DNA of 64,000 bases. It comes from an uncultured delta proteobacterium. GTDB lineage: Bacteria > Myxococcota > Myxococcia > SLRQ01. Positions 1,053-23,131 of this stretch are shown here, piece after piece. The stretch's first letter is position 1; every line of letters begins with the position of its first letter. The notes below the pieces were generated by a model. It made no database searches. It had not been told where the DNA came from and was given only the letters and a program-made list of their open reading frames with translations. The translations under genes were made by a program, and so were the position numbers. Where the stretch lies: the NCBI GenBank assembly GCA_963727485.1, contig CAVSGM010000011.1, positions 224,001-288,000 on the forward strand, read 5' to 3'.

Positions 1053-4000
1053 TTACGCGGCCGAGTTAGAGGTGGCTGGGTGGGCAGCTCGCGGGTCGCC
1101 GGGGGGAGGCTCCAGCGGCGATTGGTAGGGCGGACCAGGCTCGGCAGCGTCAGCTAGCGCGTCGTAGCGGTCCAGTATGGCTTCCTTGGTGACGTAGGAG
1201 CCGTGGGCCTTCTCGTCCCTTTGCCGGACGACCCAGAAGCTATCCAGGACGTGCTCGAGGTCGTCCCGGCCGAGGCCGTAGAGGTGGAAGAAGGCGGCGT
1301 CGAGCTCGGCACGGAGGATCGAGCGGCGGTCTGCGTCCCAGCGGAACGGTGGCTCGTCCCGCCGGGTCGCGTGCGAACGACGCGAGGTCCCAAGCGGTGT
1401 AGCGCCAGTTCGAGGACACGCGGGATGAGCCAGTCGAGACAGAACGAGGTCGCTTGGACCCCACGGGCAGGGCCGGCAGAGCGCGCTGGCGTGAGACAGG
1501 GGAAGCTGGCGCAGCACGTAGTAGGTCAAGTGAGGTTCCGCCGATCTTCTGGCGGGCGACGAAGTCGAACGCGAAGGCTGAGAGGATGCCCGACGCGGCA
1601 AGCACGAACGCCGGGACTGGCGAGAGCAACAGCGGCAGCTTGTGCCCAACGGCGGTGCGCGGGAACGATGGCGGAGATGACGGTCCGGGCGTCGCTGGTC
1701 CTGCAGATGTCCCGCCAGCCCAGGAGCCAGCCTCGGTCCCAGCGGCCCTCGAGCCGGGAAGCGACCTCGGACTCGGCGACCCAGTAGCGGGGGAGCACGA
1801 CGAGGTTCGGGTCGGCGTGCTGGGCGTCGTCGAACTCGGGGAGCTTGCCCTGGTTCGCCTGCGCCTGGGTCTGGCCCTCGTAGGTGCCGAAGCGGTGGTC
1901 GAACTGGTGGATCATCTTGGCTTCGTAGAGGGGCAGCCAGCGCTCGCCGTCACGCTCGAAGACGTTGCCCTCCAGCCTGGCGCCAGCGGCCTCCAGGTCT
2001 TCCCGGCTCCGAAAGAGGCCCGAGTCGTTGGCCATATCGAGCATTCGCAGGAAGGAGACCTGCCAGGGGTTGCCCTCAGGGTCGCCCTCCCGGACCAGCA
2101 CCGGGACCCGGCGGTAGATGGCCTTGGTGATCTCGGCGTCGGCGCCGGCGGAACACCGGGAGGGTCCGGGTGTTCGGGTTCATCAGCGCGATGTCCTCGG
2201 GGGACAGGCGGTAGCGCTTCGCCGGGTTGGCGAGGTCCCGGACCTGCCGGGCGTAGCCGACGAACTCGCCAAGGGGGGCAGGGCGCTCCGCCCCGGCGAG
2301 GGTGACCAGGCAGAAACGGACTGCGTGGTGCACCGCGGGAAGATGAACTCCTCGTTCTCGAAGTGGTACAGCGACGCCAGCGACCGGCTCTCCACGACGT
2401 CCTGGAGGAAGAACTTCGTCGTGTCGTCCGTGGCGATCCCGGACGGGCACGATGAAGCCCGGCTCGCCCGGTGGCGGAGACATAGCGACCGGTTGAGCTC
2501 GGCGAAGACGCTGTACGTGTTCACATCTCCCCGCCCGCAAAGCGGGTACCGTGCCGCTGTCCCGGACCAACGTGACTTCGCCTTCCGCCTGGCGCGGGCC
2601 TCCTGCCAGGCCCGCCACAGCGGCCGGGTCATCGGTCTCCGGAAGGCAGGCAATCAGCCTCTTTCGGGCCGCCGCAGTTCTTGGCGCCGCGATATCCGGG
2701 CTCGCGCCGCGAAGAACTCCTTCTCCTGGAGCTTCATACGCTCCCAAGGAGGATTCCCCAGCACCACGTCGAACCCGCCCGGGCCAGCCCGTTACTGTAT
2801 TCGGCTTCGCCCGACCTCTGCGCGCTGAACACGTCCGGGAACGCCAGGTGCCAATGCAGGAACCGGTATTGCTTGGCCAGCCGCCGCGATCTCGGCGCGT
2901 GTCGCCTGGGAGGCCGTGGACGGGTCCTGGGCCATCGCCTGCACACTCCGCGTGCGTCGGCGCACCGGCGCGCCTTTCTCCGGCCTTGCCGGCCACACGA
3001 AGGCGGCTGCACCAGGCGTCGGCAGCCAGGTGCGCCTGCGGTATCCGCCGGATCGGCCACGAGTTGCCGTAGAGCGCCTCCTTCGCGTGGACCGCATCGA
3101 GCGTCGCGTCGTCCCAGGTTTCAAGCCGCGCCAGCTGTCGGGAAGCCGGGAACCTGCTGGTCCTGCTCGCTCAAGGCCCGCTGGAAGGACATGCTTGCCT
3201 CTTCCGTTCCTGGCTGTTGCGTTCTTGAGTAGCTGGACGAAGTCGGGTCGTCGCCGTCGATCGGCTCCGCAGGCGCCGTCCGGGATCCGCCTTCCGCGAG
3301 CAGCTTCGGCGTGGCCCCGAGCAGGCTGTTGCCCGGCTGGATGTGGTGGTCCAGGAACGACAGCGGCTTGCCCGGCTCCAGCGCCTCCATCCACAGGCGA
3401 CACCTTGCACAGCTCCACGGCCAGCGGGTTCAGGTCGACGCCGTAAGATGCAGCGCCCGACCACGTCCCGCAGCGCCTCTGCGCAGCGCCTCCGGGCTCG
3501 CCTCCTCGTCTCCCGTCCGGACCGACGCCAGGCCGGGTGCGATCCGCCGCGCGGCCGCCACCAGGAAGTGCCCCGAGCCCGCGGCCGGGTCGCACACCTT
3601 CAGGTCCAGCAGCGCTTGCTCCGGGTCTTTCGCCTTCGCTGCCCGTCGAGTACCGGCTCCAGCGCCGAGTCCAGCAGCGCCTCCACCAGCGGCGTCGGCG
3701 TGTAGTAGCTCCCCGTCGTCTTCCGTTCGTGGCCGGCGGCCGTCGTCGAGCTCGAAGGCCCGGCCTCCCGGTTCATCTGGGGATGCAGCTCCAGCAGGCT
3801 CTCGTAGACGCTCCCCAGCTCCTCCGCGCCCAGCGTCCGCCAGTTCACCGGCATCAGCTGCTGGTCCCGCGTCCGTATGTACGCAGAGGCGCCCGGAGCG
3901 CGTTCAGCAGATCCTCGTTGTGCAGCTCCGCGTCCACCTACCCAGGCGCAGCGCGTCCCTGCTCCACAGGAAGCTGCCCAGCGCCGGCAGCCCCAGCTCC

Positions 4001-5087
4001 GGGCAGCCCCGGCGAGCTTCCCCATCACCAGCCGGAGGCCGCGCCACAGGTCCGACGTGCCGCCGTGCCCCGTGCGTCGGCCCGACAGCTCCCGCAGCCG
4101 GTCGGTCGCGTAGTACTGCGTGTAGCGATCGCCGCGCCTCTCGGCGCCGCCTGCGGATCCAGCAGCACCTCCCGGTCCTCCGCCACGAACAGGAAGATCA
4201 GTCGGTACACCAGCCGCAGGAGCTCCCGGTAGTAGCTCCTGCGTGTCGAGCGCCCCACTCGCCAGCGACTGCTGCAGCTTCCCGTTCGCCGCCGTGCTGC
4301 AGGAAGCCCGCGCCCAGCGCCTCGATCGCGCTGCTCCACGCCCGACCGCAGCCGGTCCAGCGCCCGGATCCCTTCTTCCCGCGACCGTTGGAACCACGTG
4401 CTCCAGCCAGCACGACTCGGGTCCTCCGCTTCCACCCGGCTCTGGTGGCACACCAGCCACAGCAGCCGGAAGTCGCGAGAACAGCTCCCCCGTCGAAGAT
4501 CGCTTCCAGGTCGAACTCCACGTACGCCTGGCGCGACAGGCTGTGGTGTCCCGCAGCACCCGCAGCACCCGGCCGTTCGACACGAATGCCCCACAGGTGC
4601 GCCTCCGACCGGTTCAGGAACTCCTGCACCAGGCTGTGCGGCGCCGCCGCCGCCGCCCCGCCACCCCCGCCGCGCGTCGGTCGATGCTCACGCCGGCACC
4701 CACCAGGTGGATCGGCGTCCGCGCCCACAGGTGCGAGATCGCAAACGTCTTCCCCTCGATCTCCGCCGCTGCCGTACGCTGCAGCCGTCCGTAGCCCAGT
4801 TCCTCGAACAGCGGCAGCAGCCACCGGTCCCGCGTCACCCTGATCGCCGGATCCCCCTCCGGCAGCCGACCCAGCTCCTCGCGCAGGGCCGCCCAAGCCC
4901 CCAGCAGTCGGGTCCACGCCCGGTTCGCCACCTCGCCGACCCGCTCCTGGGGCAGCAGGTGGTAGTCCGCCGCCGACATCCCCGGGAGCTTCGGGTCCCC
5001 CGCGGCGACCCGCTGGAGGAAGCTCTCCGGGAACAGGCCCCCCTCGATGTGCAGGGCGCCGAAGCCGTCCATCGCCCGCCGCCTCAT
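1053..5087 (-). CDS. N6-adenine DNA methyltransferase, Eco57I/type IIG-like (DrmMI-like); multiple frameshifts
   Basis: Motifs across frames: [11 protein letters not shown], motif [12 protein letters not shown] (~3565-3597), [14 protein letters not shown], motif [24 protein letters not shown] (~2715-2780), C-terminal [16 protein letters not shown] and [19 protein letters not shown] overlap with the SNF2 gene stop. Confidence 0.85.
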
Positions 5088-7909
5088 GCCGCACCTCCCG
5101 TCACCGGGAAGAAGAGGTAGGTGCCCAGGACATCCGGTGGCAGGTGGGCCTCGACCTTGGTGGCTCGAACCCGCATGTCCGCCGCTTTGCGGACCCGCCG
5201 GTGGGCCTCGAGGAGCGCCTCGGCCCGGGCCTTGGCGAACTCCGCCAGCGCCGGGTCCAGGCTCGGGAGCTGGCCGACGAGCTCCTCGATCTTGCGCTTG
5301 CCCATGTCGGCCGGAAGGTTCTCGTCGGCCGTGGCCCCGAGGAGCGCCTCGGCCTCGTCGTCGTCGAGCCACTCGGGCGCATCCGGCGTCCCCCGGAACG
5401 CCCGCACCGCCACGTCCTCGGCCAGCAGCGGCCGGGCGACCCCCTGGCGGTCCTCGACCACCAGGTGGAACCGCATCCGCACCAACAGCGCCGTGCACCG
5501 CCCGGAGACCGCCCTGGTCCGGATCACCGCCGCGCGCCGCGCCGGTCCCTCCGACGCGCTGTCCAGCGCCGCCTCCAGCACCCGCTCTGCCAACGCCGCC
5601 ACGAAGGGGTGGGTGCGGGTGAGGACCTCCGTGCCCGGGGTGGGCGCCGCCGAGTCGAAGCTCAGCTTGAGCCGCCACTTGCCTTCCGGCGCCAGGGTCT
5701 CCCGGAGAGCCTTGGGAAGCTCCTCCAGGTCCACTCGGACCGGCTTGCCGTCGGCGAGCCCCGCGCCCCAGCCGCGCAGACTGTCCATGGTGAAGGCCCT
5801 CACGTCCGCCGCGCCACCGACCGCCTGGCGCGCCGCCGCCACCTCGGTGGCGACCTCCTTCACGTCGATGGCGTGCTGGGCGAAGAGCGTGCGGTTCTTC
5901 TTCTCCCGCTCCGCCGCCGCCTCCCAGACTACCCCGACCTCCTGCTCCTTCTGCTCGACGATGGGCAGGGAGTACTGCCGGCTATCCTTGGCGACCCCGC
6001 CCTTGAGGAGGCCGTCGATGACCGCCTCGAGCACCGCCCCGGTGTCGAGAGGCACCGGCACGCTCACCCCGAGGACCTTCATGATCGTCTCGTGGCGCTT
6101 GAGGAGCACCCGCTGAACGATGCCGTCGACCGGGTTGTCCTCACCGACGAAGGTGAGCACCCGGACCTTCTTCTTCTCCTGTCCGTACCGGTCGACCCGG
6201 CCCTCGCGTTGCTCATGCCGGGTGGGGTTCCAGGCCAGGTCGTAGTGCATCACCGCGTCGAAGGCCGACTGGAGGTTCACGCCCTCCGAGAGACAGTCCG
6301 TGGCCACCAGGATCCGCTTCTCGTGCTCTGCGAGCTCGGCGACCTGCGCCTCCCGGGCCTCGTTCGCGAGCTGCCCCGTGACCCCCCGCACCTCCACCTT
6401 GCCCTTGAAGTGCTTCCGCAGTGCCTCCACCAGGTAGTCCACCGTGGGAATGAACCGGCAGAAGACGATGGGCGAGTACTTCTTCCCCACCAGGGTGTCG
6501 AGCTGCTTGATGGCCGCCTGGAGCTTGTGGTCCTCCTTGCCGGCGAGGGCCTCGGCGTCCTTGGCGAGCTTGAGGAGCCGGCGCCGCTCGGGGGTGTCCG
6601 TCTCGTCGATCTGGCTGCCGGGCGCCACGTCGATGCCCTCGGCCGTCTCGTCGTCCTGGTCCATGACCGTTCGCCGGCCCAGGTCGTCCGCCTCCTCGGG
6701 GGTGGTGGTGTCTGCCGGCGCCGCCCGGTTGCGCAGGGTTGCCGCGGCCGCCGCTGGGCTCGAGGACAGGGACCGCAGGAGCGCCAGGGCCGACCACCAC
6801 CGGACCCGCTGGTGCACCTCGCCGCCCTCCGTGTCCGAGACCGTCTCCCGGGCCCACTTGAGCACCTTCTCGAAGAACGCCCGGTACTTCGGCGACCAGC
6901 GGTAGGTGGCGTCGGCGCGCTCCCGGGTCGGGAACGGTGTCTCCGTGTCCAGGTAGGCCTTCACGTCGCCGCGCCGGCGTTGGACCAGGTGCCGCGCGAG
7001 CTGGCTGCGCGCGCGCCGGTTGCCCTCGCCCGAGAGATCCTCGGGGAGGTCGGCGAAGGTCGGGTCCAGGAGCGAGAGCAGGGAGCGGAAGGCCGCCTGC
7101 TTCCCGCTGTGGGGGGTGGCGGTGACCAGGATCAGGTGTCGCGTCGGGTCCTTGGCCAGGTCCTGGAGCAGCTTGTGGCGCATCTGCCCCGAGCGCCCGG
7201 CTCCGATGTCGGTGCAGGTGTGGGCCTCGTCGACGATGACCAGCTCCGGCGCCGCGCGCACGAACTCCGCCCGCCGCCGCTCGCTCTTGGCATAGTCGAT
7301 GGAGGCGACCACGTGGGGGTAGTGGTCCAGGAGGGACTCGTTGGGCCCGAGGCCCGCCGATCGCTCCAGCCGCGCCACTGTGCCCGGCAGCACCACCTCC
7401 GCGGGGATGTGGAAGAGGTCCACCATCGCCCGCTGCCACTGGTCGGCGAGGTGCGGCGGGCAGAGCACCGCGATGCGCCGGATCTCCGCCCGGTCCAGCA
7501 GCTCCCGGGCGATGAGCAGCGCCTCGATGGTCTTGCCCACACCCACGTCGTCGGCGAGGAGCAGGCGCACCGGGTCGAGGCGGAGCGCCATGAGCAAGGG
7601 CACCAGCTGGTACGGCCGCGGCTCCACCCGGATCTGGCCCAGCGACCGGAAGGGCCCCGCGCTGGAGCGGAACCCCAGGCGTACCGCGTCGCGCAGGAGC
7701 CGCGCCGCCCGGTCGTTGCCCAGGTCCCGCGAGGGGTCCGGCGGCAGGAACTTCGCCGCCTGCACGTCCTCGAGCTCGAGGAGGAAGCCGGCCACCTCGT
7801 CCTCGCTTCCGGTGAGCGGCCTGGCGACCAGGACGTCGTCGGTAGACTCCGGCAGCACCACCCACTCGCGTCCCCGAGCGGTAACGAGCGATCCCACGGC
7901 GAAGCTCAT
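5084..7909 (-). CDS. SNF2-family helicase/ATPase (DrmD-like)
   Basis: Intact 941-aa ORF: LLADDVGVGKT, DEAH, TATPHSG, LSEGVNLQ, WNPTRHEQREGRVDRYGQ. Confidence 0.92.
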   Translation of the reverse strand: MSFAVGSLVTARGREWVVLPESTDDVLVARPLTGSEDEVAGFLLELEDVQAAKFLPPDPSRDLGNDRAARLLRDAVRLGFRSSAGPFRSLGQIRVEPRPYQLVPLLMALRLDPVRLLLADDVGVGKTIEALLIARELLDRAEIRRIAVLCPPHLADQWQRAMVDLFHIPAEVVLPGTVARLERSAGLGPNESLLDHYPHVVASIDYAKSERRRAEFVRAAPELVIVDEAHTCTDIGAGRSGQMRHKLLQDLAKDPTRHLILVTATPHSGKQAAFRSLLSLLDPTFADLPEDLSGEGNRRARSQLARHLVQRRRGDVKAYLDTETPFPTRERADATYRWSPKYRAFFEKVLKWARETVSDTEGGEVHQRVRWWSALALLRSLSSSPAAAAATLRNRAAPADTTTPEEADDLGRRTVMDQDDETAEGIDVAPGSQIDETDTPERRRLLKLAKDAEALAGKEDHKLQAAIKQLDTLVGKKYSPIVFCRFIPTVDYLVEALRKHFKGKVEVRGVTGQLANEAREAQVAELAEHEKRILVATDCLSEGVNLQSAFDAVMHYDLAWNPTRHEQREGRVDRYGQEKKKVRVLTFVGEDNPVDGIVQRVLLKRHETIMKVLGVSVPVPLDTGAVLEAVIDGLLKGGVAKDSRQYSLPIVEQKEQEVGVVWEAAAEREKKNRTLFAQHAIDVKEVATEVAAARQAVGGAADVRAFTMDSLRGWGAGLADGKPVRVDLEELPKALRETLAPEGKWRLKLSFDSAAPTPGTEVLTRTHPFVAALAERVLEAALDSASEGPARRAAVIRTRAVSGRCTALLVRMRFHLVVEDRQGVARPLLAEDVAVRAFRGTPDAPEWLDDDEAEALLGATADENLPADMGKRKIEELVGQLPSLDPALAEFAKARAEALLEAHRRVRKAADMRVRATKVEAHLPPDVLGTYLFFPVTGGAA

Positions 7910-9973
7910 GCGGCGGCCTCCGGCTCGACGAGGTGTGCCAGCGGTTCCAGGAACGCGCTGGGCTTCTTGGCCCAGGTGACGACCAGCTCGTCACGGGCGC
8001 GGGTCATGGCGACGTAGAGGAGCTGGCGCTCCCGGTCGGTAGCGGCGGCGCGGTCGATCGGGTCCTTCTCGCTCTTCACCGCCGCCGGCAGCGGCAGGTA
8101 CTTGCGGGCGCAGCTCGCCACCAGGACCGCCTTGAACTCGAGGCCCTTGGCACCGTGCATGGTGCCGAACCCGATGCCCTCGCCATCCTCGGCGCCGGCG
8201 GCGAGGCGGCGGCAAGGCAGCCCGGCCGCTTCCGCCGCCTCCCGGAGCGCCGTGGCCCGGCTCCCGGTCCGGGCGAAGACGGCGATCGCCTCCGGCTTCA
8301 GGCCCCCGTCGATCCAGGCGCGGAGCTGGTCCACCACCCCGTCGGCCTCGTCGGCCTCGCCCTCGAAGCTCCGGAGGGTCGGCTCCGGTCCCTTGAGGAG
8401 GCTGCGCGTTCCCTGGCGTGACTCGGTGCCGGCGTCGAGGTCGTCTACCTCGTCGCCGAGAACCCGGTCCGCCGCCCGCCGGATCTCTTCGGTCGTCCGG
8501 TAGTTGAGGCGCAGGACGTGCGAGCGGCCGCGGACGTCGAGGCCCAGGGCCGTGAGGCTGAACCCGCCGGGGTAGATGCGCTGACCCGCATCTCCGAGGA
8601 GCATCAGCCGGTCGCCGTGGTCGCCCACCAGGCTGGCCAGAAAGGCCAGGTCCGGTGCCTTGAGGTCCTGGATTTCGTCGACCACCACCGCGTCGTAGGG
8701 AACCTTGACCCGGCCTGCCTTCACCGCGTCCTCGGCGAGGCGGCAGAAGGTCGGCCAGTCCGCCTGGCTGCGGGAGGCGAGCTCCCCGCGAATGGCCTCG
8801 AAGGCGGGCCACAGGGCCTTGCGCTCGCGCGCCGAGAGGGGTGTCCCGCGCCCGGTCCGGCGCGCCGACCGGTACGCCTTCCAGCTCTGGATGCCCTGGG
8901 CGTGGATCACGTGCTCCCACTCCGCCCCGACGAAGTCGGGATCCTCCGGGAGCTCTGCCCGCTGCAGCACCGACTTCACCAGGGCGCGCAGCTCCGTGTC
9001 CTTGACCGTTTCGAGCGTCTTCCCGTCGGCCTGCGCCAGGTCCCGGGCCTGCTTGTGCACCGTGCTCACCGTGATCCGGGCGCGGACCTCGGGAACGCAC
9101 AGCAGGTCGAGGCTGCGCTCGAGGTTGCGGGCCAGGGTGGTGGTGAAGGTCGTGAAGAGCACCTGGTGTCCCTGCTGGGCCAGCCGGCGTGCCCGGTGGA
9201 GCCCGACCACCGTCTTCCCCGTGCCGGCGGCTCCTGTGACCTTGACCGGACCCTTGTAGGTCCCCTCGACGAGCGCCCGCTGGGAGGGGTGGAGGAACGC
9301 CATCCACTGCTCCAGGGGCGCCTCGAGAATCGCCTGGAGCTCGTCCTCGCGCTCCACCACGAAGAACCGCCGCCGGAGGTCCGGGCTGTCCTGCACCAGC
9401 CGGTTCGGGGCCACCGGGGCAGGGGGTGTGGGCAGCTCGCCCGCCGCCAGCGACAGCAGCCGCTCCTGCACGTCCTCCGGGAGATTGCCGATGACCTCGA
9501 AGAGCTTGTCCTCGGAGCGCACCTCGCGCACCACCGGGAGCCAGTTCTCGGGAACGCCGAGGCTCAAGAGGTACTTGTCGGCGCGGCTCTGGAAGAGCGG
9601 CGGCGCCTCGGTCTTCTCGATGATCCGCTGGATCTCCTTGATCGTCTCGACGCGCTCGACCACCTGGAGCTGCCCGGTCACCGGGTGGAAGCCCACCTCG
9701 CGCCGCTCTGCCCAGCGATAGGCGGCGTCGTGGTGGTCCGCGTGGAGGATCGCCCAGGTGTCCCCGTTCTTGTGGAGGATGGCTCGGATGTCCTGGTTGA
9801 TCCGAGCGCTCCACAGGTCCTTCGACCTGGTGTCGGTCGATCCGCTCCAGGCTCAGGCTCGGGTGCTTGGGGTTCTCCCGAAAGTGCTCGAGGAAGTCGA
9901 CTGCCAGGCCCTTCTCGCCAACCGTGAGGCCGGCCAGGGATGAGAAGAAGTCCTTGTCGATGATCAGCTCCAT
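7906..9973 (-). CDS. UvrD/Rep SF1A helicase with N-terminal RelE/ParE-like domain; one frameshift near 9837
   Basis: Start MELIIDKDFFSSL at 9973 (TGATG overlap). Helicase motifs FLHPSQ, GAAGTGKT, VVDEIQD, GDAGQRIY, LNYRTT, TMHGAKGLEF, LYVAMTRAR. Confidence 0.88.
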
Positions 9974-12900
9974 CAGCTTTCCCCCTCCAGCAGTTCGAGA
10001 ACGCGCGCGGCTGCGTCGGCCGCGGTCGGGTCCAGGAGCAGGCAGCGGTCGCCCCCGGCGCGACAGGCCTGCGCCACGACGTCGGCCTCCGGGGCCCCGG
10101 CGGAGACCAGCGCCACTCGAGCCCCGTCTCGGCCGGCCCAGGCGTGCACTTGGCCGGCTACGCGGTCCCCGGCCATGACGTCCCCCCCGGGCTCCATGGT
10201 GACCCCGTGCTCTTCGGAGAGCTGGCGGACCAGCGAGTGCCAGGGGTCGTCGAAGAGGTCGAGCGGTAGCTCGGTTGGAGCCTCGACCTCGGCCGCCGTC
10301 TCCGGGGCGGCGCTGCTCGGGGTCGGGGACGGAGGGTTCCCGAACGTGGAGGCGTACTGGGCGAAGGTCTCGGCCCAGGTCTCGGGCTCCTCGAATCGGA
10401 TAGCGAACCATCCCTGGTCCTCAAGCTCATTCACCACCCCCGGTCGGTCATGGGGCAATCCGGCGATGAGCACCGCCGTGCCATTCGGGTACTCGAAGTC
10501 GATGGGGGTGCCTGCCTTGGTCTTGGCGTTCGCCTGCAGCGGCAGGTGCAGCCCCTGGGTGTTCACCTGGTCGAGCCACTGCCTTGCCGTCTCGCAGGTG
10601 GCCTCCTCCTGCATCCGGCTGATTTGGGTGCGGATCGGCTCCGGCTCCGGGTCGGCGTCGACGGAGCCGTTGGACCAGGCGAGCAAGAGGTCGCGCACCA
10701 GGTGCCGGTCGAGCATCCGGTGCTCACGCTGGTTGTAGTAGGAGAGCAGGCAGTCGTAGCACGCCGCCTCGCAGTCCTCCTGGGCGCCCGGGGCCCGGTG
10801 CTCGTCCGCACCGGTCTCCTTGTCGAAGTGGGTCACCTCGAGGGCGCGGGCGGCAACGGCAGCCAGCGTCTTGGGGCCCTCGACAAGCTCCTTGAGCACC
10901 CCGGCGCCGCCCTCGGCCGCCTCGTAGAAGAGGATGGCCCGGCGGTCGTGCTCGTCGGGGAGCGGCTCGGCGGCGAGCTCCGCGTCCTCGAGCTGGAAGT
11001 GCAGGAGGATGGCTGCCTTCAGCGCGGCTTGCAGGGAGGCCAGGGTGGCGTCGTCCTCGATCCCTTCGGGCTGCAGAACGAGGCAGTTGCGGCGGTCCTC
11101 CACGAAGGGCAGGACCCGCTTGGTCTTGGGGCCCACGGCATCCGCGTTGGCGTCGTCGGCGTCGGACTGGCTCCGGGCCCAGAAGCCCCGCTCGACGTCG
11201 AGGATGAAGCCCTCGGCAGCGTCCGCTCGCTGGCGCCGCCAGCCCATGTTCATGCGCCAGAGGGTCGCCGCGTGTCCGTAGGTGAGCCCGGCCCGGAGGT
11301 CTCCGTCTGCATCCCGAAGGCGACCCTTCCGGGCGGAGATCCGACCCTGCCGCTCGGCGAACCGGACGGCGGTCCGCAGCTCGTAGCCCAGCCGCTGGCG
11401 CTCCTCCTCGTCGGAGTTGATGCGGTCGCGGCGCCGGGTGGCGACGTTCTGCATCCGGAAGAGGTTGTCTCGGGGAGCCGGCAGGGAGGCGTCGCAGAGC
11501 TCACAGAGGTCGGGTGGCGGTGCCGCCCTCTACCGCGGTGGAAGTAGCCGCACGCGTCGCACCGCACGGCGCTCCGGTGATGGCGTCATTGCGTCGCGTG
11601 CGACCGGCAGGATGACCTTGTTGATCACGTACCGAGAGCCCTCGTGGTAGATGATGGCTGCGCGGCCCGAACTCGGAGATCGCCAGGAACCGCGGCCGGC
11701 TGAAGGAACTCGTCCCGCCCTTGCCGCCCCGCCGCCCGGGAGGAACGCCGAGAGTGGCAGGCGGGGGAAGTTGTAGCCCGGGAGGAAGCCCTCGCTGGCG
11801 AAGTAGCGGTAGCTGTAGAAGTCGGAGTGCCGCCGCCTCGCCCGCCTCGATGAGCAGCTCGAGCTGGGCCTCGGCCTCGGCCCGAAGGCGGCGGGCCTGG
11901 CTGCGGTCGCTGGGGCTCCGCGTGGGGTCGGTAGCGATGGCCTGCTGCCGATTCGGACTGGGCGAGGGCGGAGCTGTAGAGGTCCCGCCACCGGCGCACG
12001 CTTGGTCGAAGGCCTTGCGGGACCTCGTCGAGGACCTCGCTTGATCCACCCGCCGGCATCGGCGTCGATGTGGTCGTGGACGACTGCCCCCAGGCATTCG
12101 ATGGCGCGGTTCAGCGCCCTCGCTCGAGCCGCGGCATCCTCGAGCTTGGCGCGCACGTGGGCGCGGATGGGCAGCTTCTCGGACTGAAGGTCCAGGACGG
12201 TCTCCAGGCTCTTGCCCAGGTTGAGGCTCGCCTCCCGAATCCACAGCGCGTGGATGTGGGCCCGGACCAGGTCCTCGTTCCCCAGGTCGAGGCGCGGCGG
12301 CTTCACCGCCCCGGCGACCATCTGGTCGGGCCGCTTGAAGAAGTACTGGTCGTGCGGGCTCCCGGCCGAGCAGTAGGTGACCACGAGGGCCGGATTGCCG
12401 CCGCGGCCTGCCCGGCCGCTGCGCTGGGCGTAGTTCGCCGGGGTCGGCGGTACGTTGCGCAGGCCCACCACGTTGAGCTGCCGGATGTCGACCCCGAGCT
12501 CCATCGTCGGCGAGCAGAAGAGGATCGGGAGGTCGCCCTCGCGGAAGCGCTCCTCGCGCTCGGTGCGCAGGGTGTCGATGACCTGGGCGGTGTGCTCCCG
12601 GGCCTCGAGGCCGTTCAGGTCGGGCGCCTTCTCCTGGTAGAAGTGGACGAAGAAGTCGTTGGTGGACAGGCCCCCCTCGGGTGCACGCGGCACTCGGACC
12701 TTGTCGTGGAAGGCCTGCCTGCCCTCCCCGGCATGCCAGACGAAGGCCGACGACTTGAGCTGGTAGCCCTCTGGCTGGTCCTGCTTGGGTGGATCGATCC
12801 GCCGAACGAGACCGCCCCGGCGAAGCACCTCGAGGAGCCCGCGGATGATGGCCTCGCTGTCCGTGAGGCTCAGCGGGCCTGCGGTGGGGAAGGTGTCGGG

Positions 12901-15475
12901 GCGCTTGAGGTAGAGGCCAAGTCCACCTCGCGGCGACAGCCACACCCAGCGGTCCGGGTGCCCCGGCAGGGGCCTGCGGGACCCGACAACCGCCACACAG
13001 GCCTCCTGGAGCGGCTCGTCCGGGTCGAGGGCCCAGGGCTCTTCGAGGTGCGCGCGAGACTGCGGCTTGATCCGGTCCTGGGCGGCGGCCTCTAGGTAGG
13101 GCGTGTCGATGCAGAGCTCGCGCCGGAGGTGGTCGAGGAGCACCTTTGCGGCGTTGCCGCGGGCCTCCGGGGCGGCGCCAGCGAGCGCTGGATGCTGTTC
13201 GGCCCACGCCGGTTCGTGGGCGCAGAGCTCGGCGAGGCTGGGGTAGTCGATCGTCAGCAGCCCGCTCTGCTCGAGGTTTGGCGAGGTCACCCGCCACCCT
13301 CGCTGCAAGTCCCGGTAGAGGTAGATGCCGAGCACCTCGCGCAGCGCCCGGTACACATCGTCTCGGGCCGAGGGGAAGAGGTCCTTCTCCTTGGCGTAGC
13401 TCTCGAAGGGCAGGTCCAGGGCGACGCGTACGGCCTCGGGGAGCGTCTCCTGGTCGAGCCCAGCCTCGCCGGCGTCCCGAGCCGCCCGGTAGAGCGCCGA
13501 CCGAAGCAGCCCGATCTCGACGAAGTCGTTGAAGTGGCCCGCCTGGAGCGACGCGTCCTGGCGGTTGTCTGTGAAGGATAGGAGCTTCTTGGCGTCGGGC
13601 GGCAGCTCGGGGTCCTGGCGAAGCCGGCGGACCAGCTGAGAGGGCCGTCACGGTCGTGGCCGTGCTCCGACCCTCGGAGCCCAGGGTGGCCAGCTTGCCG
13701 TAGTCGGAGGACTGGGCGCCGCTGTAGGCGACGCCACAGGCCAGGCAGAAGCGGAAGGGCGCCCGGAACCAAGTGCATGAGCAGGCCGTCGGGCCCTTCG
13801 GTGCCGTCGGGACGGACCCGTACCGGATCCGGGAGGTACTTCCGCTGGTTCTTGCGGACCCGCTCGCGGCCCTGGCCGTCGACCTCCAGCCAGCTCTCCG
13901 GAAGGCGGTCTCGTTGGGCCGCCGGATCCTCGGGCCAGGGGTCCTTCGTGCTCAAGCGAAGGAAGCCTGCGTCGGCGTCGTCGTCACTGTCGAAGAGCCG
14001 GTCGGTCACCCCGCGCTTCTCGTAGCGGTGACCGCCTGCCTCGGGGATCCGTCGCACGACGTAGTAGGCCTCGCCGCACTCCCGGCAGAAGGCCAGCGGC
14101 AGCAGGGCGTGGCGCCGCTCAGTGCCGGGAGCCCACTCCTGGGCCTGGAGGGTGATGTGCCGCGTGTCCTCGGGCTCGAGGGTGGAGTACACCGCCTCGC
14201 CTTTGGAGAGGAATTGGTGAAGACGGAAGGGAAACGCCAAGCGCTCCTGGCCATCGTCGTCCTGGTAGCGCGTGAGCAGGGCGGTGGTCAGGGCGGCGCT
14301 GCAGGTCTCCGGCTCGAGGCCGGTCGCCTCCGCCAGGAGCGCCACGGCGTTGCCGTCCCCGCGGGAGAACGGCACCGGGAGTGAGCGCACCAAGCGCCCG
14401 CCGTCCGGGTCGAGACGGAGGCCGAGGGTCGACTCGATCCAGGCGGCGAGTGGGTCGTGGGAGAAGGCCTGGGGATCCTGGAGGCAGCTCACCGCCGGCG
14501 GCGACCCGGGCACGCAGCGCCGCTCGGTCGCCCTCTGCCTTCTCCAAGGACGTGACGCGTCGCAGGGTCTCTCCGATGATGCGCTCGGGCTTCACCTCGG
14601 CTCCGAAGAGCCGGCTGGCAACCTTGGCCACCTGGGCTTGCTGGTTCTCCCAGCTCCCCTCGCCGGCGAGGGTCGCCGAGGTGCCGACGTGAATCACCTC
14701 CGGCGTGTCGGTCGCCTTGCGCACCCGTCGGACGAGCATCGCCACGTCCGCGCCCTGGCGACCGCGGTAGGTATGAAGCTCGTCGAGGACGAGAAACCGC
14801 AGCTTGCCCACGGCACCCTCGGTCAGCTTGAACTCCCGGGGGCGGGTGAGCACCAGCTCGAGCATCACGTAGTTGGTGAGCAGGATGTCCGGCGGGGAGT
14901 CGAGGATCGCCTGTCGCTGCTCCTCGAGCTCCTGGCCGGTGTACCGCGCGAAGGTGACCGGCGGCTTGCCGTGGAACCCGTTGCAGAGGAACTTCTCCAG
15001 CTCGCCCACCTGGCTGTTGGCCAGGGCATTCATCGGGTAGACGACGATCGCCCGGATGCCCTTGCCGCTTCCCTCGCGCAGGACGTGGTCCACGATGGGG
15101 ACTAGGTACGCCAGGCTCTTCCCTGACCCGGTGCCCGTGGTCAGGACGTAGTTGTCACCGGCCCGTGCTGCGCGGATCCCCTCCACCTGGTGCCGGTGGA
15201 GCCGGAGCGGCCCCTTGTCCAAGCCATCCTCGGGCTTCCGGCGGAAGATCTGCTCGCAGGTGGGGTGGAGCAGGCCCTCTTCGACGAGGGCCTCGGTGGT
15301 CGGGCCCGGCTCGAAGGCGGGGTTGAGCTGGATCGAGTGGTTCCGGCCAGAGACGGCCGGCCTTCAGGTTCGCCTCGACCGTCTTCGCGATCTCCTGGTC
15401 CCGGATCGTGAAGAAGCTTCGGACATAGCTTGCGTAGTCGCCGATGACCTCGTTGCGGAGCTTGAAGACGTCCAT
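9973..15475 (-). CDS. Large DEAD/DEAH-box SF2 helicase with DUF1998 (DrmA+DrmB-like fusion) and C-terminal nuclease-like domains; multiple frameshifts
   Basis: Start MDVFKLRNEVIGDY; TTGTGSGKS, VYPMNALANSQ, DELHTYRG, SPTMELGVDI, QRSGRAGR, Zn-finger CxxC pairs, DUF1998-type CEAACYDCLLSYYNQ. The ORF pieces are colinear. Confidence 0.88.
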
Positions 15476-15789
15476 GGTTCACCTGGAGCGGCCGAGCTTG
15501 CCCGAGAGGTGTGTCAGATCGGGACAAGATCCAGCTGGACCGCCCACTTCACCGCGATCCGGTGCTGGCGGCAAGTGGAAGTTGCTAGGGGTTGGCTCGC
15601 CCTGAAGAGGCGACGACCACCCCGGCGAAGGAGCCGCTACAGGCCGTCGACCAGCCGCTGCGACGCGGATGTTCACAGCACCCGGTGATCAGCGTAGTCT
15701 AGGGGATATTACGATCGTCCCAGGAGGACGAGGCCGTGCAGAGGTACTTGGCGGCAGGGGCGGATTGCCGGAGCACTCATGGAAACTAG

Positions 15790-17025
15790 ATGGCATCGGG
15801 GATGGGCTCGAGCAGTCAACCGTTGCCGGCGCGGAGCCGGCGTAGGGGTCGCGTCGTGAGGAGAGGCGGCGCCAGCGCAACAACCGAGGATCGACTCGAT
15901 AAGCTGCGTGGCAAGAGCAAGCGACAGTCCACGAACGTGCGGGCGTTGGCGCGGTTCGCGGCAAACAGTTCATGCACTCTTGCGCGGGTCGGATTCGCGG
16001 CGCGCGTAGACTTCGACTACTTGCTTGAAGGCACGCGCCTGCAAGCTCCGTTTGGCCAGTCGCCGTTCGCCTTTCGCCGGGGAAACCAATTCGAGGATCG
16101 CCTCCGTGCGGACGGGCACGCGCCGCTCCTTGCGCTGCTACAGGAAGGTCTGAAGTACGATCCTACCGACGCCAAGGTGGTGAACCTGCGTGATGGGCGG
16201 CCGACGCCGAAGAAGCTCGCGGCACGTGCGGAGAGAACGCGCGACCTCGTAGCCAAGATCGTCAAGGGCGGGCGATCCGCCCCGAATCTCTTGGATGGAG
16301 CGGTGCTAGCCAAGAGCATTGGCGGAGGCGTCTCCCACTTTGAAGCCGATGCCGTAGCGGCCCGGTTCAATGGACCGATCCACGTGGGGGAGGTGAAGTC
16401 CTTCCCGACCGTGGACGGGCAGGCAGACCCGGAGAAGGTTGGGGCGGCAATCTCCCAGGCAGCGATCTACATGCTGTTGCTCCGGGAACTCGTCGATTCG
16501 GTGGGAGGAGATCCTGGCCTCGTTTCGCCTGAGGCCTTGCTCATAACACCAAAGAACACAGGCCTGCAGCCGACTCTGACGGTGAAGCTCGTCGGGCGCG
16601 AGATTGAACGAGCGGCCCGCATCTTCGACAACCTCGAGCCGGTTGACGACATCGTCGACGATCTTCCGGCTCGACTTCCCTCCTTTGAGAAGATCAGTCC
16701 CAAGAGCCACGCCTCGGAAGTTGAGCGCATCGATACGGCGCTGCACCTGGTCGACAAGGTTGGCAACGCCTACACTCCGAACTGCTTGGCCTCGTGCGGT
16801 CTCGGGCGCCTCTGCCGGGAGCGCGCCCATCGCTCTGGCGCACCGGAACGCTTTGGGGGGCAGCTTCAGCGGCTCGTGCCCGGGGTGGCCTCAATTGACA
16901 GGGCCGGCGTTCTGGCCGCAGGGGCTCGGCCCAGGCGGCAAGAAAGGGATGCCGCCGAGCGGCTGGTCCAGACGCAGGCCCTGCTGGAGCTGGCCAATCG
17001 CAACGGGAAGAGGAGAGGGCGATGA
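15790..17025 (+). CDS. Putative Cas4/RecB-family PD-(D/E)xK nuclease with predicted Fe-S cluster
   Basis: N-terminal Cys (ANSSC), RRGNQFE, HFEADAV...GEVKSF, RecB-type QAAIY (QxxxY) and C-terminal CLASCGLGRLC. The start could instead be GTG at 15856. Confidence 0.7.
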   Translation: MASGMGSSSQPLPARSRRRGRVVRRGGASATTEDRLDKLRGKSKRQSTNVRALARFAANSSCTLARVGFAARVDFDYLLEGTRLQAPFGQSPFAFRRGNQFEDRLRADGHAPLLALLQEGLKYDPTDAKVVNLRDGRPTPKKLAARAERTRDLVAKIVKGGRSAPNLLDGAVLAKSIGGGVSHFEADAVAARFNGPIHVGEVKSFPTVDGQADPEKVGAAISQAAIYMLLLRELVDSVGGDPGLVSPEALLITPKNTGLQPTLTVKLVGREIERAARIFDNLEPVDDIVDDLPARLPSFEKISPKSHASEVERIDTALHLVDKVGNAYTPNCLASCGLGRLCRERAHRSGAPERFGGQLQRLVPGVASIDRAGVLAAGARPRRQERDAAERLVQTQALLELANRNGKRRGR

Positions 17026-18448
17026 ACTACCTCGACGCTGTGCTCCTTGCCCAGGCTCGCGAGCGGGGTAGAGGTGTGCGGTCGGCCCGGTTCCGCCATC
17101 GGCATATCACGAAGCGGCCAATGGGGCTGGTCCTCTGGCAACTCGGCGCCGAACCGTTCACGGTGGGGGCGGCTGCCTGGGGCTTCTCGAAATCGGATCG
17201 GAACCTGGTGGTTCCTGGGGAACCCCGAAACCGCGATCTCGCCTTCCGCGCCCTGCTCGAGGTCGCCAAGCCCTTCAACGCCTGGTTCATGAAGGATAGG
17301 GCCGACGCCCCCCAAGTCGTCCTTCTCAACCGCGGGAATCTCTCCCTGCTCTCGAGGATAGCGAGGCGGATCGCCTACCTCCCGACTACCGGTGACCGGC
17401 CAGCACCCCAGGAACTGGTCATGTTCGGCCGGCACCTTCGGTTCCTCGTCGATCAGGCCCGCTACCCAGGCCAGCAACTGGTGCTTATCCTCACGGAGCT
17501 CCTGCGCGACCACTGGGTGACGGAACTCTCGGAGCTCGAGACCCAGAACCTAGCCGCGCTCGACGCTGCCATCGCGCCCCCAAAGGGGCTAACTGGGCAT
17601 GAGGCGGCGGTGGCAGCCGAGACCCTGGACGTCGGTCCGGTCCCGACCGGCGACGAGGACGAGCGCCTGGATCCCCTTGTGCGGCGATTCAACGAGCGTC
17701 GGCGGGGCTCCACGGAGGAGAAGCTCGTGGCGCCTCTCCGAGGCCCAATCGAACGGCACTATCGCGGCCTGGTCTACAAGCGCGGCTGGCCGCTGCTGTG
17801 GCGGGCCCTAGAACGGGAGCGCAAGCTCCCTGAAGCGCCCAGTGTGAAGGACCGGTGGAACGCCGACGTGGATGCTTACCAAGGCTATCTGGAGTGGGTG
17901 AACAAGGCCGGAGGTAGGAGGCGCGTGCGGCAGACAGCGGTCCAAGCGGCGCGTACCTTGCGGCGCTGGGAGGAGGCCGAACGACTCCGCCAGGCTCACG
18001 AGGCCCTTGACGACCCACTTCGGATGATACCGGCCTTCCTGAGGGATGATGCCCTGGTCGGGCGCGTGGTGGAGGTCGACCTCGAGCACCGAGAGCGTCC
18101 GAACATCAAGCTCGTACGCAGGCCTCTGGTGACGTTGCATCTTGCCAGCCCGTGCAGGATGCCCCTGGGCAAGCAGCTCTACTGGACGCAGAACGCCAAG
18201 GGTAAGCCCTATACCCTCGTGAGGGTGGGCAAGGGACCTGCAGGCAAGGGCACGGAATCGCGCTCCGCCACGAGGTGGGCTCGGCGGTCGCGAGACCCAA
18301 GAAAGGCACGCAGGCCACATTCTCCGTCTTTCACCTCCACGCAGATCCACCGCTGAAGCTACCGAAGGCCGTGCCCTGGGTGTACGAGGTCGCGGACGGC
18401 CCGGTGGCGTCAATCGAAGTACCGGGCAAGGGCAGGTCTTGGGAATGA
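17022..18448 (+). CDS. Hypothetical protein, middle gene of the nuclease-helicase operon; one frameshift near 18257
   Basis: ATGA overlap with the upstream gene. A frameshift after GKGTE continues ...ALRHEVGSAVARPKKGTQATFSVFHLHADPPLKLPKAVPWVYE...RSWE* and ends in an ATGA overlap with the helicase start at 18445. Confidence 0.75.
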
Positions 18449-19794
18449 AAGAGCCCTTCAACGAGGAGGCAGTGGCCAGTGCCGAGCGCACAGTCAGGGC
18501 CCTCATCAAGGACCTTCTCTCTGGGACCAAGCCCAAGGCCGTGATTGGTGAAGCTCCGGCGGGCGCGGGAAAGTCCTACGCGATTGGCACGGCGCTCCGC
18601 GCGGCGCGCAAGGAGAAGCTCCGTGTGGCCGTAGCCACCCCGACGAACGAGCAGGCCTTCGCCCTGGTGGACTCGCTCGCACGACGCTTCAAGCGCCAGA
18701 CCATCACGTTCGTGCCGGCCGACCACATTTCCCTCCCCGACCAGATCGCGAGGTTGAGGAATGTTCAGTCCTTGACGCCCGACGAGGCCGATGGCGAAGA
18801 GATCCTCGTCGGCACGCTGAACAAGCTGGGCGACGCGTTTGGGCGGGGTTCTCTTGGACCCCTCGACGTCTTGTTGATGGATGAAGCCCTGCAGGCGAAC
18901 TCGACCCAGTACTACCTGGTCGCGGGCCTCGCCGACCGGCACCTCCTGATGGGAGATCGGGGGCAACTTGCGCCCTTCACCACAGCGCCAGAGGGCGACC
19001 GTTGGAGAGGACTGGCCGAGGATCCACTCCTCACGGCCGCCGAGGTCGTCAGCCGCAACCACCCGGAAGCCACGGAGACAAGGAAGCTGCCAATCACCCG
19101 CCGGTTGGACTCACGAGCCGTCGAGGTGGCAAGAGCCTTCTATCCAGATCACCAGTTCGAAGCGGCCGTGCTGGACGGGGTTAGGAGGCTGCGACTGGGA
19201 CGCGTCGCCCGCGCCAGCAAGCTGGACCACATCCTCGCATCTGCGGCCGGCAATGGGTGGGCCCACGTAGAACTGCCTACCGCTGCCGTGACGGTGGCTG
19301 ACCGGGAGACAATCTCGCTTGTCGTCGACCTGGTTCGGCGCCTGTTCGAGCGCAAGCCGAAGGTTAGCTGTGAGGACAGGGACCAGCCGACTTCTCTGCA
19401 ACAGAACGAGGTAGCGGTCGCCGTCAGCCACAACGACCAGAAGAACCTCCTCCGGGTGGCACTTGACGACGCCGGCTTGGAGAAGGTCGTGGTCAACACG
19501 GCGAACAAGTTGCAAGGCCTCACCTTTGAGGTCGTTGTCGCCTGGCATCCACTCGCGGGGCTGCAGGAGGTCGATGAGTTTCATCTGGATCCAGGTCGCC
19601 TTTGCGTCATGCTTACCCGCCATCGCCAAGCCTGTATCGTCGTTGGGCGAGAGGCCGACCGGGATCTGGTTCAGGGTATCCCGCCAGCGAGCCCGTCGTT
19701 CGTCGGGTGGGATGCCAGCCCCACGCTTGACGGCTGGTACGCTCACGAGGCCGTGTTTTCTGCGCTTGCGCCCCACAGGTTCGCAGCAGGATAG
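18445..19794 (+). CDS. Upf1/Dna2-like SF1B helicase (AAA_11/AAA_12-type), stand-alone
   Basis: APAGAGKS, ATPTNEQA, MDEALQ, MGDRGQLAP, VNTANKLQG, RLCVMLTRHR. Confidence 0.85.
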   Translation: MKEPFNEEAVASAERTVRALIKDLLSGTKPKAVIGEAPAGAGKSYAIGTALRAARKEKLRVAVATPTNEQAFALVDSLARRFKRQTITFVPADHISLPDQIARLRNVQSLTPDEADGEEILVGTLNKLGDAFGRGSLGPLDVLLMDEALQANSTQYYLVAGLADRHLLMGDRGQLAPFTTAPEGDRWRGLAEDPLLTAAEVVSRNHPEATETRKLPITRRLDSRAVEVARAFYPDHQFEAAVLDGVRRLRLGRVARASKLDHILASAAGNGWAHVELPTAAVTVADRETISLVVDLVRRLFERKPKVSCEDRDQPTSLQQNEVAVAVSHNDQKNLLRVALDDAGLEKVVVNTANKLQGLTFEVVVAWHPLAGLQEVDEFHLDPGRLCVMLTRHRQACIVVGREADRDLVQGIPPASPSFVGWDASPTLDGWYAHEAVFSALAPHRFAAG

Positions 19795-20009
19795 GTCGCA
19801 CCGGGGAAGCGCCTCTACTCTGGCGCCTGTTCCCGAAGAGACCGTAGACATTGGCCGAGAGGTTGTGTTCGCAACGCTCGGAAACTGAGCCCGCCTGTGC
19901 AGCAAGCGCGTGGCTGGCTTATCAGTCTCCGAGCTTTGCAGACACCCTTGCCCAGCAGGCGGTCAATGCTCCACAGGGGTACAGGGTCGGTGGTGGGGCG
20001 TTCGCCCCA

Positions 20010-20927
20010 TCAGCCGGATCCAGGCGCGTCACCAGCTGCACGCAGGGACGCGGGCGGTGGCGCGTGGAGCTCCATGCGTCGACCGTCGCGCGGGTGGGTG
20101 AACACCAGCCGCTCCGAATGGAGCAGGTAGCCGGGATCGCCGGGCAGCGCGCGGGTGCCTTCGAGCGGTAGGCCGCCCGCGGCGTAGAGCGGATCCCCTG
20201 CGAGGGGGAAGCCTGCGGCGGCGAGGTGGATGCGGATCTGGTGCGGCCTGCCCGTCACGATGTCGACGGCGAAGAGGGTCTCTGCATCGCGGCGCTCGAG
20301 GACGTGGGCGACGCTGCGGGCCGGCTTGCCGGAAGGCGACGCGGCGTGCACGGTGCCGAGCAGCAGGTGGGGCACGCGGCCGATCGGCGTGTCGATCTCG
20401 AGCGTGTCCGCCTCGCACACGCCCGCGGCGAGCGCGCGGTAGCGCTTGTCGACCTCGTGCGCGCGCCACGCGGCCTGGAGCAGGCTCCCCGCGCCCGGGG
20501 TGCGGGCGAAGAGGACGAGGCCCGAGGTCGCGCGGCCGAGGCGGTGCATCGGCGAGGCGCACGGCGCCTGCGCACGCACGAGCGCGAGAAGGGTGTGCTC
20601 GAGGAAGCCGCCGCCCGGCATCGTGGGGAGCCCGCTCGGCTTGGCGACGGCGAGAAGGTCCTCGTCCTCGTAGAGAACGTCGAACGACGTCGGCACCTCC
20701 GGCTCGTCCCACGGCGGGCGGTGCCACACCAGCGACTGGCCCGCGCGGAGAACCGCGTCTGCGGGCGCGTCGCGACCGTCGAGGGTGACCTCGCCGCGGT
20801 CGATGCGCGCGGCCCACTCCTCGCGCGAGGCGCGCCGGTAGGTGCGCGCCAGGTGATCGAGCAGGGTCGTCCCGGCCCCCTGGCGCCCGATGCGCGACTC
20901 GTAGGCGTAGCCCCGATTCAGGGTCAC
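20010..20927 (-). CDS. RluA-family pseudouridine synthase-like protein with S4-like N-terminus (HRLG variant)
   Basis: VLYEDEDLLAVAKPSGLP, HRLGRATSGL, TGRPHQIRIHLA, GDPLY. Confidence 0.88.
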   Translation of the reverse strand: MTLNRGYAYESRIGRQGAGTTLLDHLARTYRRASREEWAARIDRGEVTLDGRDAPADAVLRAGQSLVWHRPPWDEPEVPTSFDVLYEDEDLLAVAKPSGLPTMPGGGFLEHTLLALVRAQAPCASPMHRLGRATSGLVLFARTPGAGSLLQAAWRAHEVDKRYRALAAGVCEADTLEIDTPIGRVPHLLLGTVHAASPSGKPARSVAHVLERRDAETLFAVDIVTGRPHQIRIHLAAAGFPLAGDPLYAAGGLPLEGTRALPGDPGYLLHSERLVFTHPRDGRRMELHAPPPASLRAAGDAPGSG

Positions 20928-23055: not shown

Positions 23056-23131
23056 TGGAGCGGGAAACCGGATTCGAACCGGCGACCCTCAGCTTGGGAA
23101 GCTGATGCTCTACCAACTGAGCTATTCCCGC
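23056..23131 (-). tRNA. tRNA-Gly (CCC)
   Basis: GCGGGAATAGCTCAGTTGGTAGAGCATCAGCTTCCCAAGCTGAGGGTCGCCGGTTCGAATCCGGTTTCCCGCTCCA: 76 nt, D and T loops present, anticodon CCC, encoded CCA. Confidence 0.97.

Follow-up and report, generated by a model that had tools for sequence, protein, structure and literature searches.

Among the described enzymes in which a DNA nuclease is coupled to a helicase, those closest to the system considered here are Dna2, the bacterial enzyme Bad and the TM0106 family (TIGR03491), whose members are of about 1100-1200 amino acids (aa) and are uncharacterised. Bad, from Geobacillus, is described in PMC7430649 as a 5'-3' motor on single-stranded DNA (ssDNA) joined to an endonuclease, which loads on 5' overhangs. 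The same account gives it a sporadic distribution, an extra central domain and a methyltransferase as neighbour, and it was from this neighbour that its authors proposed a restriction-like role. The locus presented here lies in a stretch of 64,000 nucleotides (the window) from an uncultured delta proteobacterium of the Myxococcota, contig CAVSGM010000011.1, positions 224,001 to 288,000. It consists of three genes, named A, B and C, which are predicted, from models of their products, to form a nuclease-helicase of Dna2-like architecture in a new version, divided over three subunits. The operon is made up as follows.

15856..17025, forward strand: gene A, 389 aa, predicted Cas4/AddB/Dna2-type iron-staple PD-(D/E)xK nuclease.
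17022..17025, forward strand: ATGA stop/start overlap between A and B, read from the sequence.
17022..18448, forward strand: gene B, 475 aa after a one-base correction near 18257, predicted to comprise a DnaQ-type exonuclease fold, a helical stalk, a beta-barrel (helicase 1B domain) and a C-terminal docking motif.
18445..18448, forward strand: ATGA stop/start overlap between B and C, read from the sequence with the frame of gene B corrected.
18445..19794, forward strand: gene C, 449 aa, a bare two-RecA-domain helicase motor of superfamily 1B (SF1B), Upf1/Dna2-like.

That the products of these genes share a Dna2-like architecture split over three subunits is, judging from the structural models, very probable. 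The explanation that best accounts for the observations as a whole is a wider one, namely that this nuclease-helicase destroys foreign DNA and belongs to a mobile lineage found in defence islands, and its chances are put slightly above even. The operon itself is real, intact and conserved. The order A-B-C is kept in 46 of 48 loci, and the trio is conserved as a unit elsewhere: in the 28 loci found with gene B in GTDB genomes, A lies upstream in all 28 and C downstream in 27, the contig of the 28th coming to an end, and the same order was seen in 19 of 20 further loci (three from plasmids and 17 from genome searches). The coupling of the three genes by ATGA overlaps, read in the original prediction, is found at both junctions in the window, and it recurs in the 38 related loci that were scored, 31 of which show the A-B overlap and 28 the B-C overlap, with B and C no more than 7 bases apart in six more; these counts rest on start calls made in the present analysis.

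Two corrections to the reading of the genes were necessary. The start of gene A, initially placed at an ATG at 15790, was moved to the GTG at 15856, in agreement with the 389 aa database protein for the locus and with homologues of about 390 aa. As assembled, gene B has 444 codons, and its homologues, mostly of 470-490 aa, match it in two frames across approximately position 18257. A short-read contig (run X1, depth 3.9, a single contig) carries an extra base after 18256 and is otherwise identical over 237 bases; the addition of one base yields a frame of 475 codons that ends at 18448. Since this contig restores the frame, the break, already suspected to be a single frameshift, is most likely an assembly error, and a programmed frameshift or a pseudogene was set aside on account of the extra base. 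Run X1 may itself be the source sample of the assembly, so that an error of assembly is indicated rather than a second strain. The same run differs by one base at 15335 too, inside the neighbouring helicase gene, and the assembly is therefore considered prone to indels. The operon is, as first noticed, less GC-rich than the core genes: its GC content is 64-66%, compared to 73% for the genome, and the GC content at third codon positions (GC3) is 74-79%, compared to 91-98% in five other genes of the window. Low GC3 is not a general trait of the trio among the copies compared in other genomes, and a scan of 15300-20200 for promoter-like or terminator-like sites gave none.

The evidence for the architecture comes from each gene in turn. 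The product of gene A carries E80, D165, E179-x-K181 and Q201-x3-Y205, together with cysteines at positions 40, 310, 314 and 320. In an alignment of 108 rows C40, D165, E179, K181, Q201, Y205, C314 and C320 are invariant and E80 and C310 are at least 90% conserved, and the catalytic motifs are retained in the actinomycete copies. The C-terminal cysteines are spaced C-x3-C-x5-C, the usual spacing in nucleases of the Cas4/AddB/EXO5 type being C-x2-C-x5-C. With the AlphaFold model (pLDDT, predicted local distance difference test, 93.9), Foldseek returned five matches at E<=0.001, namely three chains of Cas4 SSO0001, a putative exonuclease and human EXO5. A wide structure search (VIA) ranked Cas4 7mi4 first (Z 9.3, root-mean-square deviation (rmsd) 4.7, 191 residues aligned), followed by a DinG-fusion nuclease, a second Cas4, AddAB (Z 8.1), RecB, MGME1 and EXO5, and the comparison with the Dna2 nuclease 5ean gave Z 5.6, rmsd 4.6 and 200 aligned. 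A Z of 9.3 is modest, yet the top structures all belong to one superfamily. The PD-(D/E)xK and QxxxY motifs and the layout of one plus three cysteines, from which gene A was first called a nuclease, are thus borne out by conservation and by a fold of the Cas4/RecB kind, although searches of Pfam, NCBIfam and PHROGs gave no match for this gene. Taken together, motifs, cysteines and modelled fold predict an iron-staple nuclease of the Cas4/AddB/Dna2 type, a class set out in PMC7430649, and its cysteines would hold a 4Fe-4S cluster.

Gene C is recognised by Pfam (AAA_12, E 1e-10; AAA_30, E 3e-8), with a Walker A lysine at K43 and Walker B residues D146-E147, and its SF1 motifs are conserved across the 44 sequences compared. 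Its best solved relatives by profile are SMUBP-2 (E 5e-12), Dna2 (5e-11) and Upf1 (2e-10), and PADLOC gave only weak generic helicase matches (best 2e-5). With only 449 aa, gene C has no room for the barrel, and the initial description of a full SF1B motif set without accessory domains holds.

Gene B, in which no recognisable motif had been seen, turned out to have a confident predicted fold. Its structure was taken from the AlphaFold model of a full-length homologue, P0124 (63% identical, pLDDT 93.5). Residues 30-280 of this model match the DnaQ-type exonuclease domains of family B polymerases (Z up to 10.1 at rmsd 3.6 over 181 aligned), and further on Setx is matched by residues 301-447 (Z 8.6 at rmsd 6.7 over 118 aligned) and Sen1 by residues 301-435 (Z 8.4). 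On the basis of what is known of Upf1-family structures, and of the domains described in PMC11090510, the region 301-447 is predicted to be a stalk and 1B barrel. The suggestion that B supplies an RNase H-like/beta-barrel middle part agrees with the model, in which a DnaQ-type domain (RNase H superfamily) precedes a stalk and barrel of the Upf1 family. At the sequence level the family, which amounts to 741 clusters at 50% identity, is silent: gene B has no match in Pfam or NCBIfam, nor in PHROGs with P0124 as the query, none of 83 diverse homologues matches NCBIfam, and the best hit of its profile against PDB sequences has E 1.1. The exonuclease domain is probably inactive, because its first strand ends in Q-L-G where the TM0106 proteins hold an invariant D-x-E (mapped by eye, without coordinates); likewise, alignment columns 38-43, after this strand, show no conserved acid when mapped by eye. 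E44, E173, E200 and D281 are conserved, and may represent a remodelled active site.

A physical link between the two halves of the helicase was suggested by complex prediction. The B-C pair of a relative (locus L002) scored 0.72, and the highest-scoring of its three controls 0.01; the mark applied is reached by 116 of 157 solved complexes and by 2 of 215 mismatched pairs, counts that are approximate with the present alignments. The runs agree in at least 85% of the contacts, and the pLDDT of the partners is at least 86. On the B side the predicted interface is formed by residues 302-320, in the stalk helix, and by the PWTH tail, which are 95-98% conserved, and on the C side by W185, D191, P192 and A196, 93-100% conserved. 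B and C are therefore predicted to bind. The idea that A, B and C work as one three-subunit machine is consistent with the folds, with this predicted contact and with the co-occurrence of the genes, and for the contact between A and B it is one that we infer. Four long B matches carry parts of A (P0243 and P0348) or of C (P0387 and P0265), with two records for P0348 and one for each of the others. As proof of a single machine these fusions are weak, the records being few and the linkers of P0243 and P0265 resembling frameshift read-through. No A-B-C fusion occurs among the best 150 B matches or, which is weak evidence, among the proteins of 960-2740 aa that were searched.

The likeness to the TM0106 family was examined with 7 and 23 sequences. 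On the 23-row TM0106 alignment gene A falls on positions 26-292, including the four cysteine positions, residues 318-418 of gene B on 596-676, and gene C on 758-1141. The match of C is significant (probability 99.8%); those of A and B have probabilities of 0.9% and 0.8%, with scores of 25.3 and 25.2 that exceed every one of the 20 block shuffles, which reach at most 23.6 and 21.8. With a narrower alignment of gene A (A1) the best TM0106 match was placed elsewhere, and a forced global alignment of gene B gave a score of 2.97, within the range of the shuffles. The hidden Markov model of TIGR03491 matched none of A, B and C, none of the 83 gene B homologues, and nothing in genome G000. Membership of the family was rejected on the missing TIGR03491 match and on probabilities below 1% for A and B. 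Common descent with it, above all for the middle part, is no more than a possibility, the placements of A and B being collinear without reaching significance and the global alignment of B having failed. As far as the sequences tell, the trio is built like TM0106, Dna2 and Bad without belonging to the TM0106 family. The trio also matched no named system among those compared, as was originally thought: genes A and B have no match in PADLOC-DB 2.0.0 at E 0.1, the annotations given for Prithvi, Ukko and Geb in 10.1101/2025.01.08.631966 do not fit it, and no description of it was found in the literature searched, which consisted of main texts (the supplements of two preprints and of the Bad paper could list the family).

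In its genome, the trio closes an island of about 26 kb, in which a McrBC-like pair and the following operon are also found.

1056..15475, reverse strand: divergent ARMADA-like operon, with a YprA/DUF1998 helicase, a UvrD helicase, a BrxHII-like SNF2 helicase and a probable methyltransferase.

Pfam finds DEAD, Helicase_C, MZB, UvrD and SNF2 in this operon, and PADLOC finds DruE, GajB and DpdE/DrmD/BrxH; the methyltransferase pieces have no Pfam match and were named by eye, and the assembly breaks the operon by several frameshifts. The head-to-head neighbour had been called DISARM-like. A divergent operon of the defence type does adjoin the trio, but its gene content, compared with that described in 10.1101/2025.09.15.676423, appears to fit ARMADA better, and the DISARM label was set aside. 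The order is that of ARMADA Type I (YprA, SNF2, methyltransferase), except that YprA is followed by an additional UvrD helicase; in 10.1101/2025.09.15.676423 it is Type II that is described with a UvrD subunit. The McrBC-like pair, just left of the window (L139:15705-20000), comprises pieces of an EVE-domain ATPase followed by a DUF2357/PDDEXK_7 nuclease. The left end of the island (L139:12821-13411 and 13646-15698) is marked by an isolated C-terminal copy of a UvrD helicase that resembles the one in the window; beside it stand two low-GC open reading frames, of 383 and 230 aa, for which neither Pfam nor PADLOC gave a match. On the right, a tRNA-Gly(CCC) gene lies at 23056-23131 on the reverse strand, about 3.3 kb from the trio, and neither a flanking repeat nor a duplicated tRNA end was seen on the contig.

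A neighbourhood of this kind is common among the relatives, as judged from gene calls of at least 200 aa made in the present analysis. Five Pfam families of methyltransferases and type I restriction-modification (RM) are found within 10 kb in 11 of 28 loci, where 2.5-3.1% would be expected from the roughly 42 clusters that these families form over 36.55 Mb of sequence from five genomes. A binomial test gives p 2e-10, and 2.5e-6 when related loci are roughly collapsed (7 of 22); a background of five genomes only, and loci that are kin and so not independent, weaken these figures as an argument for defence. When RM, McrBC, BrxL, DISARM, Septu, Lamassu, Tiamat, GmrSD and SIR2 genes were all counted, a defence gene was present in 18 of the 23 loci of at least 10 kb (weakly in L017). 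On the three Streptomyces plasmids that carry the trio, Wadjet follows it in two, and all three have SbcCD, or fragments of it, upstream. No methyltransferase is a constant partner across the loci. The anti-phage or anti-plasmid role first proposed is thus favoured for the clade of the window, by the RM neighbours and the defence genes in the flanks, and not for the core actinomycete clade considered below.

Several recurrent arrangements were observed in these neighbourhoods. An optional fourth gene of 260-286 aa, with a conserved RRDE motif and no Pfam match, lies directly upstream of A in 14 of the 48 loci.

L019:8070-8849: example of the fourth gene; the other 13 loci are likewise.

This gene was found neither in the genome of the window nor in 11 core actinomycete loci, and the ESM Atlas returned only unnamed actinomycete clusters for it (gene D) and for gene B. 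A cassette made of a divergent SbcCD, the fourth gene, A, B and C recurs in L032:1737-18070, L031, L034 and L069, with Wadjet in two cases, and is carried by Streptomyces plasmids and by one second copy in a chromosomal assembly. In L012:6894-8477, L014:6410-7999 and L016:6970-8556 a gene of the sigma-54 activator type and a type I RM operon are divergent from the trio. A UvrD-PD-(D/E)xK fusion and an N6/N4 methyltransferase stand beside it in L009:13144-17420, L011:2991-8782 and L070:429-7722, one of these trios being very divergent.

The spread of the trio is patchy. Gene B occurs in 0 of 40 close relatives, in 1 of 300 other genomes of the same phylum, in 16 of 401 Actinomycetota (including the known carrier used as centre), and in 5 of 81 and 2 of 61 genomes of two families, each again including a known carrier at the centre. 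In a quick tree of C proteins, that of the window falls in a well-supported branch of 25 rows which mixes Myxococcota, Planctomycetota, Pseudomonadota and others, and the core actinomycete clade is separate. A phage origin was discarded, gene B having no match among 50,697 phage records.

All these observations can be integrated in the following model. C would act as an ATP-driven 5'-to-3' motor, on which B would dock through its stalk helix and C-terminal motif, giving the motor in trans a beta-barrel which, in helicases of the Upf1 family, is part of the motor's own chain, while the probably inactive exonuclease fold of B would serve as a nucleic-acid-binding scaffold. By analogy with Bad (PMC7430649), C with the barrel of B would thread along a free 5' strand, and A would cut ahead of it through its Fe-S-stapled PD-(D/E)xK site. 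The target would be foreign DNA exposing a single-stranded 5' end, such as intermediates of phage or plasmid replication or recombination, or ends made by the neighbouring restriction systems, and self DNA might be spared through recognition of DNA structure. A role in defence appears reasonably probable for the clade of the window; the core actinomycete clade may carry out repair instead. In its fullest form, the proposal is of a heterotrimer in which an adaptor with an exonuclease fold lends the Upf1-family motor its stalk and barrel in trans, acting as a stand-alone or restriction-assisting defence across many phyla and present as a fixed, near-universal core set in Streptomyces, where it would be either a hidden immune system of the core genome or a missing enzyme for the processing of DNA ends; this is advanced tentatively, with chances somewhat short of even.

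A number of observations weigh against this explanation. As regards the architecture, the structural Z scores of gene B (8-10) are modest, albeit both matches sit where expected, and Foldseek gave nothing for it at E<=0.001 in the PDB or in the viral library. The B-C pair is half of a split architecture that has already been solved, and its score may therefore reflect likeness to known Upf1/Dna2 structures; the model was, moreover, made on the relative, and the copy in the window has PWVY (18374-18385) in place of the PWTH of the family. In one locus (L055, G342:C1) A and B occur without C, the only C match in the genome being 36 kb away on the same strand. As regards defence, five of the 23 long flanks (L004, L006, L019, L026 and L028) have no defence gene, and 95 of 101 genomes from a single actinomycete genus with large genomes, that of G099, carry gene B. 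This genus is probably Streptomyces, since on the C tree its proteins fall together with those of named Streptomyces plasmids. One gene order is common to the 11 loci examined in it, and in L059, scanned in full (with a few genes of L057), the trio is flanked by two-component, phosphatase and GGDEF/EAL genes, none of the neighbours being recognised as a defence gene. The actinomycete trios suggested at the outset are real, in this genus and on the Streptomyces plasmids, and a finding expected to count against defence, that of homologues mainly in core repair contexts, is partly in evidence.

These last observations are what an alternative of some substance builds on, in which the same machine is an enzyme of DNA repair or end processing (resection, flaps or stalled forks), core in Streptomyces-like bacteria and hitch-hiking in integration hotspots elsewhere. 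The near-universal presence in one genus and the fixed synteny there would be explained, as would ten records named Herbidospora that carry gene B; Dna2 is itself a repair enzyme (PMC7430649), and L032, L034 and L069 have a divergent SbcCD pair next to the operon, of which L031 has fragments. However, the trio is rare or missing in most lineages searched, and the clade of the window, set apart from the core clade on the C tree, is enriched beside RM and other defence genes, so that this alternative is regarded as rather unlikely.

It is improbable that the trio serves the mobile element that carries it rather than the host, for instance by helping plasmids and integrative elements to replicate, process their ends or recombine. 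Trios do occur on three Streptomyces plasmids, and L013, L019 and L070 have recombinase or integrase genes nearby, but gene B matches only 3 of 72,556 plasmid records, one of them of 11.85 Mb, and no phage record, and no integrase was seen in the examined part of the island of the window. Many Rhodococcus and Mycobacterium plasmids carry SF1 helicases that stand alone, are about 430 aa long and share 28-32% identity with C (e.g., L033:5845-7140); they would also fit a service to plasmids, yet these plasmids have no B match. Finally, a defence effector whose substrate is RNA or an RNA-DNA hybrid, as has been proposed for other defence helicases of the Upf1 type, would suit the relatedness of C to SMUBP-2 and Upf1, the matches of the B barrel to Setx and Sen1, the presence of the Aquarius helicase among the weak top rows of Foldseek for B, and the Upf1-like helicases of CoCoNuT, predicted to target RNA (PMC11090510), but it is highly improbable, given that the fold matches of gene A (Cas4, AddAB, RecB, EXO5, MGME1 and lambda exonuclease) are all DNA nucleases and that the fused enzymes of the same order, Dna2 and Bad, act on ssDNA (PMC7430649).

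Should the three-subunit nuclease-helicase proposed here be confirmed, it would represent a defence or DNA-processing machine missed by current catalogues, since family models are lacking for two of the three genes. It would also be a natural split of Dna2, in which nuclease, adaptor and motor could be purified separately and mixed, and the coupling of a nuclease placed ahead of the motor in Dna2-like enzymes would thereby become directly testable. In addition, three hypothetical genes present in about 94% of the sampled genomes of the probable Streptomyces genus would receive a testable function, and one knockout in that genus would separate repair from defence.

In comparison with known systems, gene A has in common with Cas4, AddB and EXO5 the predicted fold, the layout of one plus three cysteines and the PD-(D/E)xK and QxxxY motifs, but it is larger (389 aa), has the C-x3-C-x5-C spacing, and stands in an operon without Cas genes or an AddA partner. 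With the Upf1/SMUBP-2/Sen1 helicases, including CnuH of CoCoNuT as described in PMC11090510, the trio would share two RecA domains, a stalk and a beta-barrel, with the difference that stalk and barrel come from a separate upstream gene and that the operon has no McrBC-type GTPase. The order of the parts is that of the TM0106 family. Dna2 and Bad, like the trio, place an iron-staple nuclease of the RecB family before an SF1B helicase, and their Upf1-like SF1B motor, stalk and barrel would correspond to C for the motor and to B for the stalk and barrel. The trio departs from them in being three genes and not one chain, with stop codons separating the reading frames here and in the relatives, in the predicted DnaQ-type domain between nuclease and barrel, and in a stalk and barrel that would reside in a different protein from the motor.

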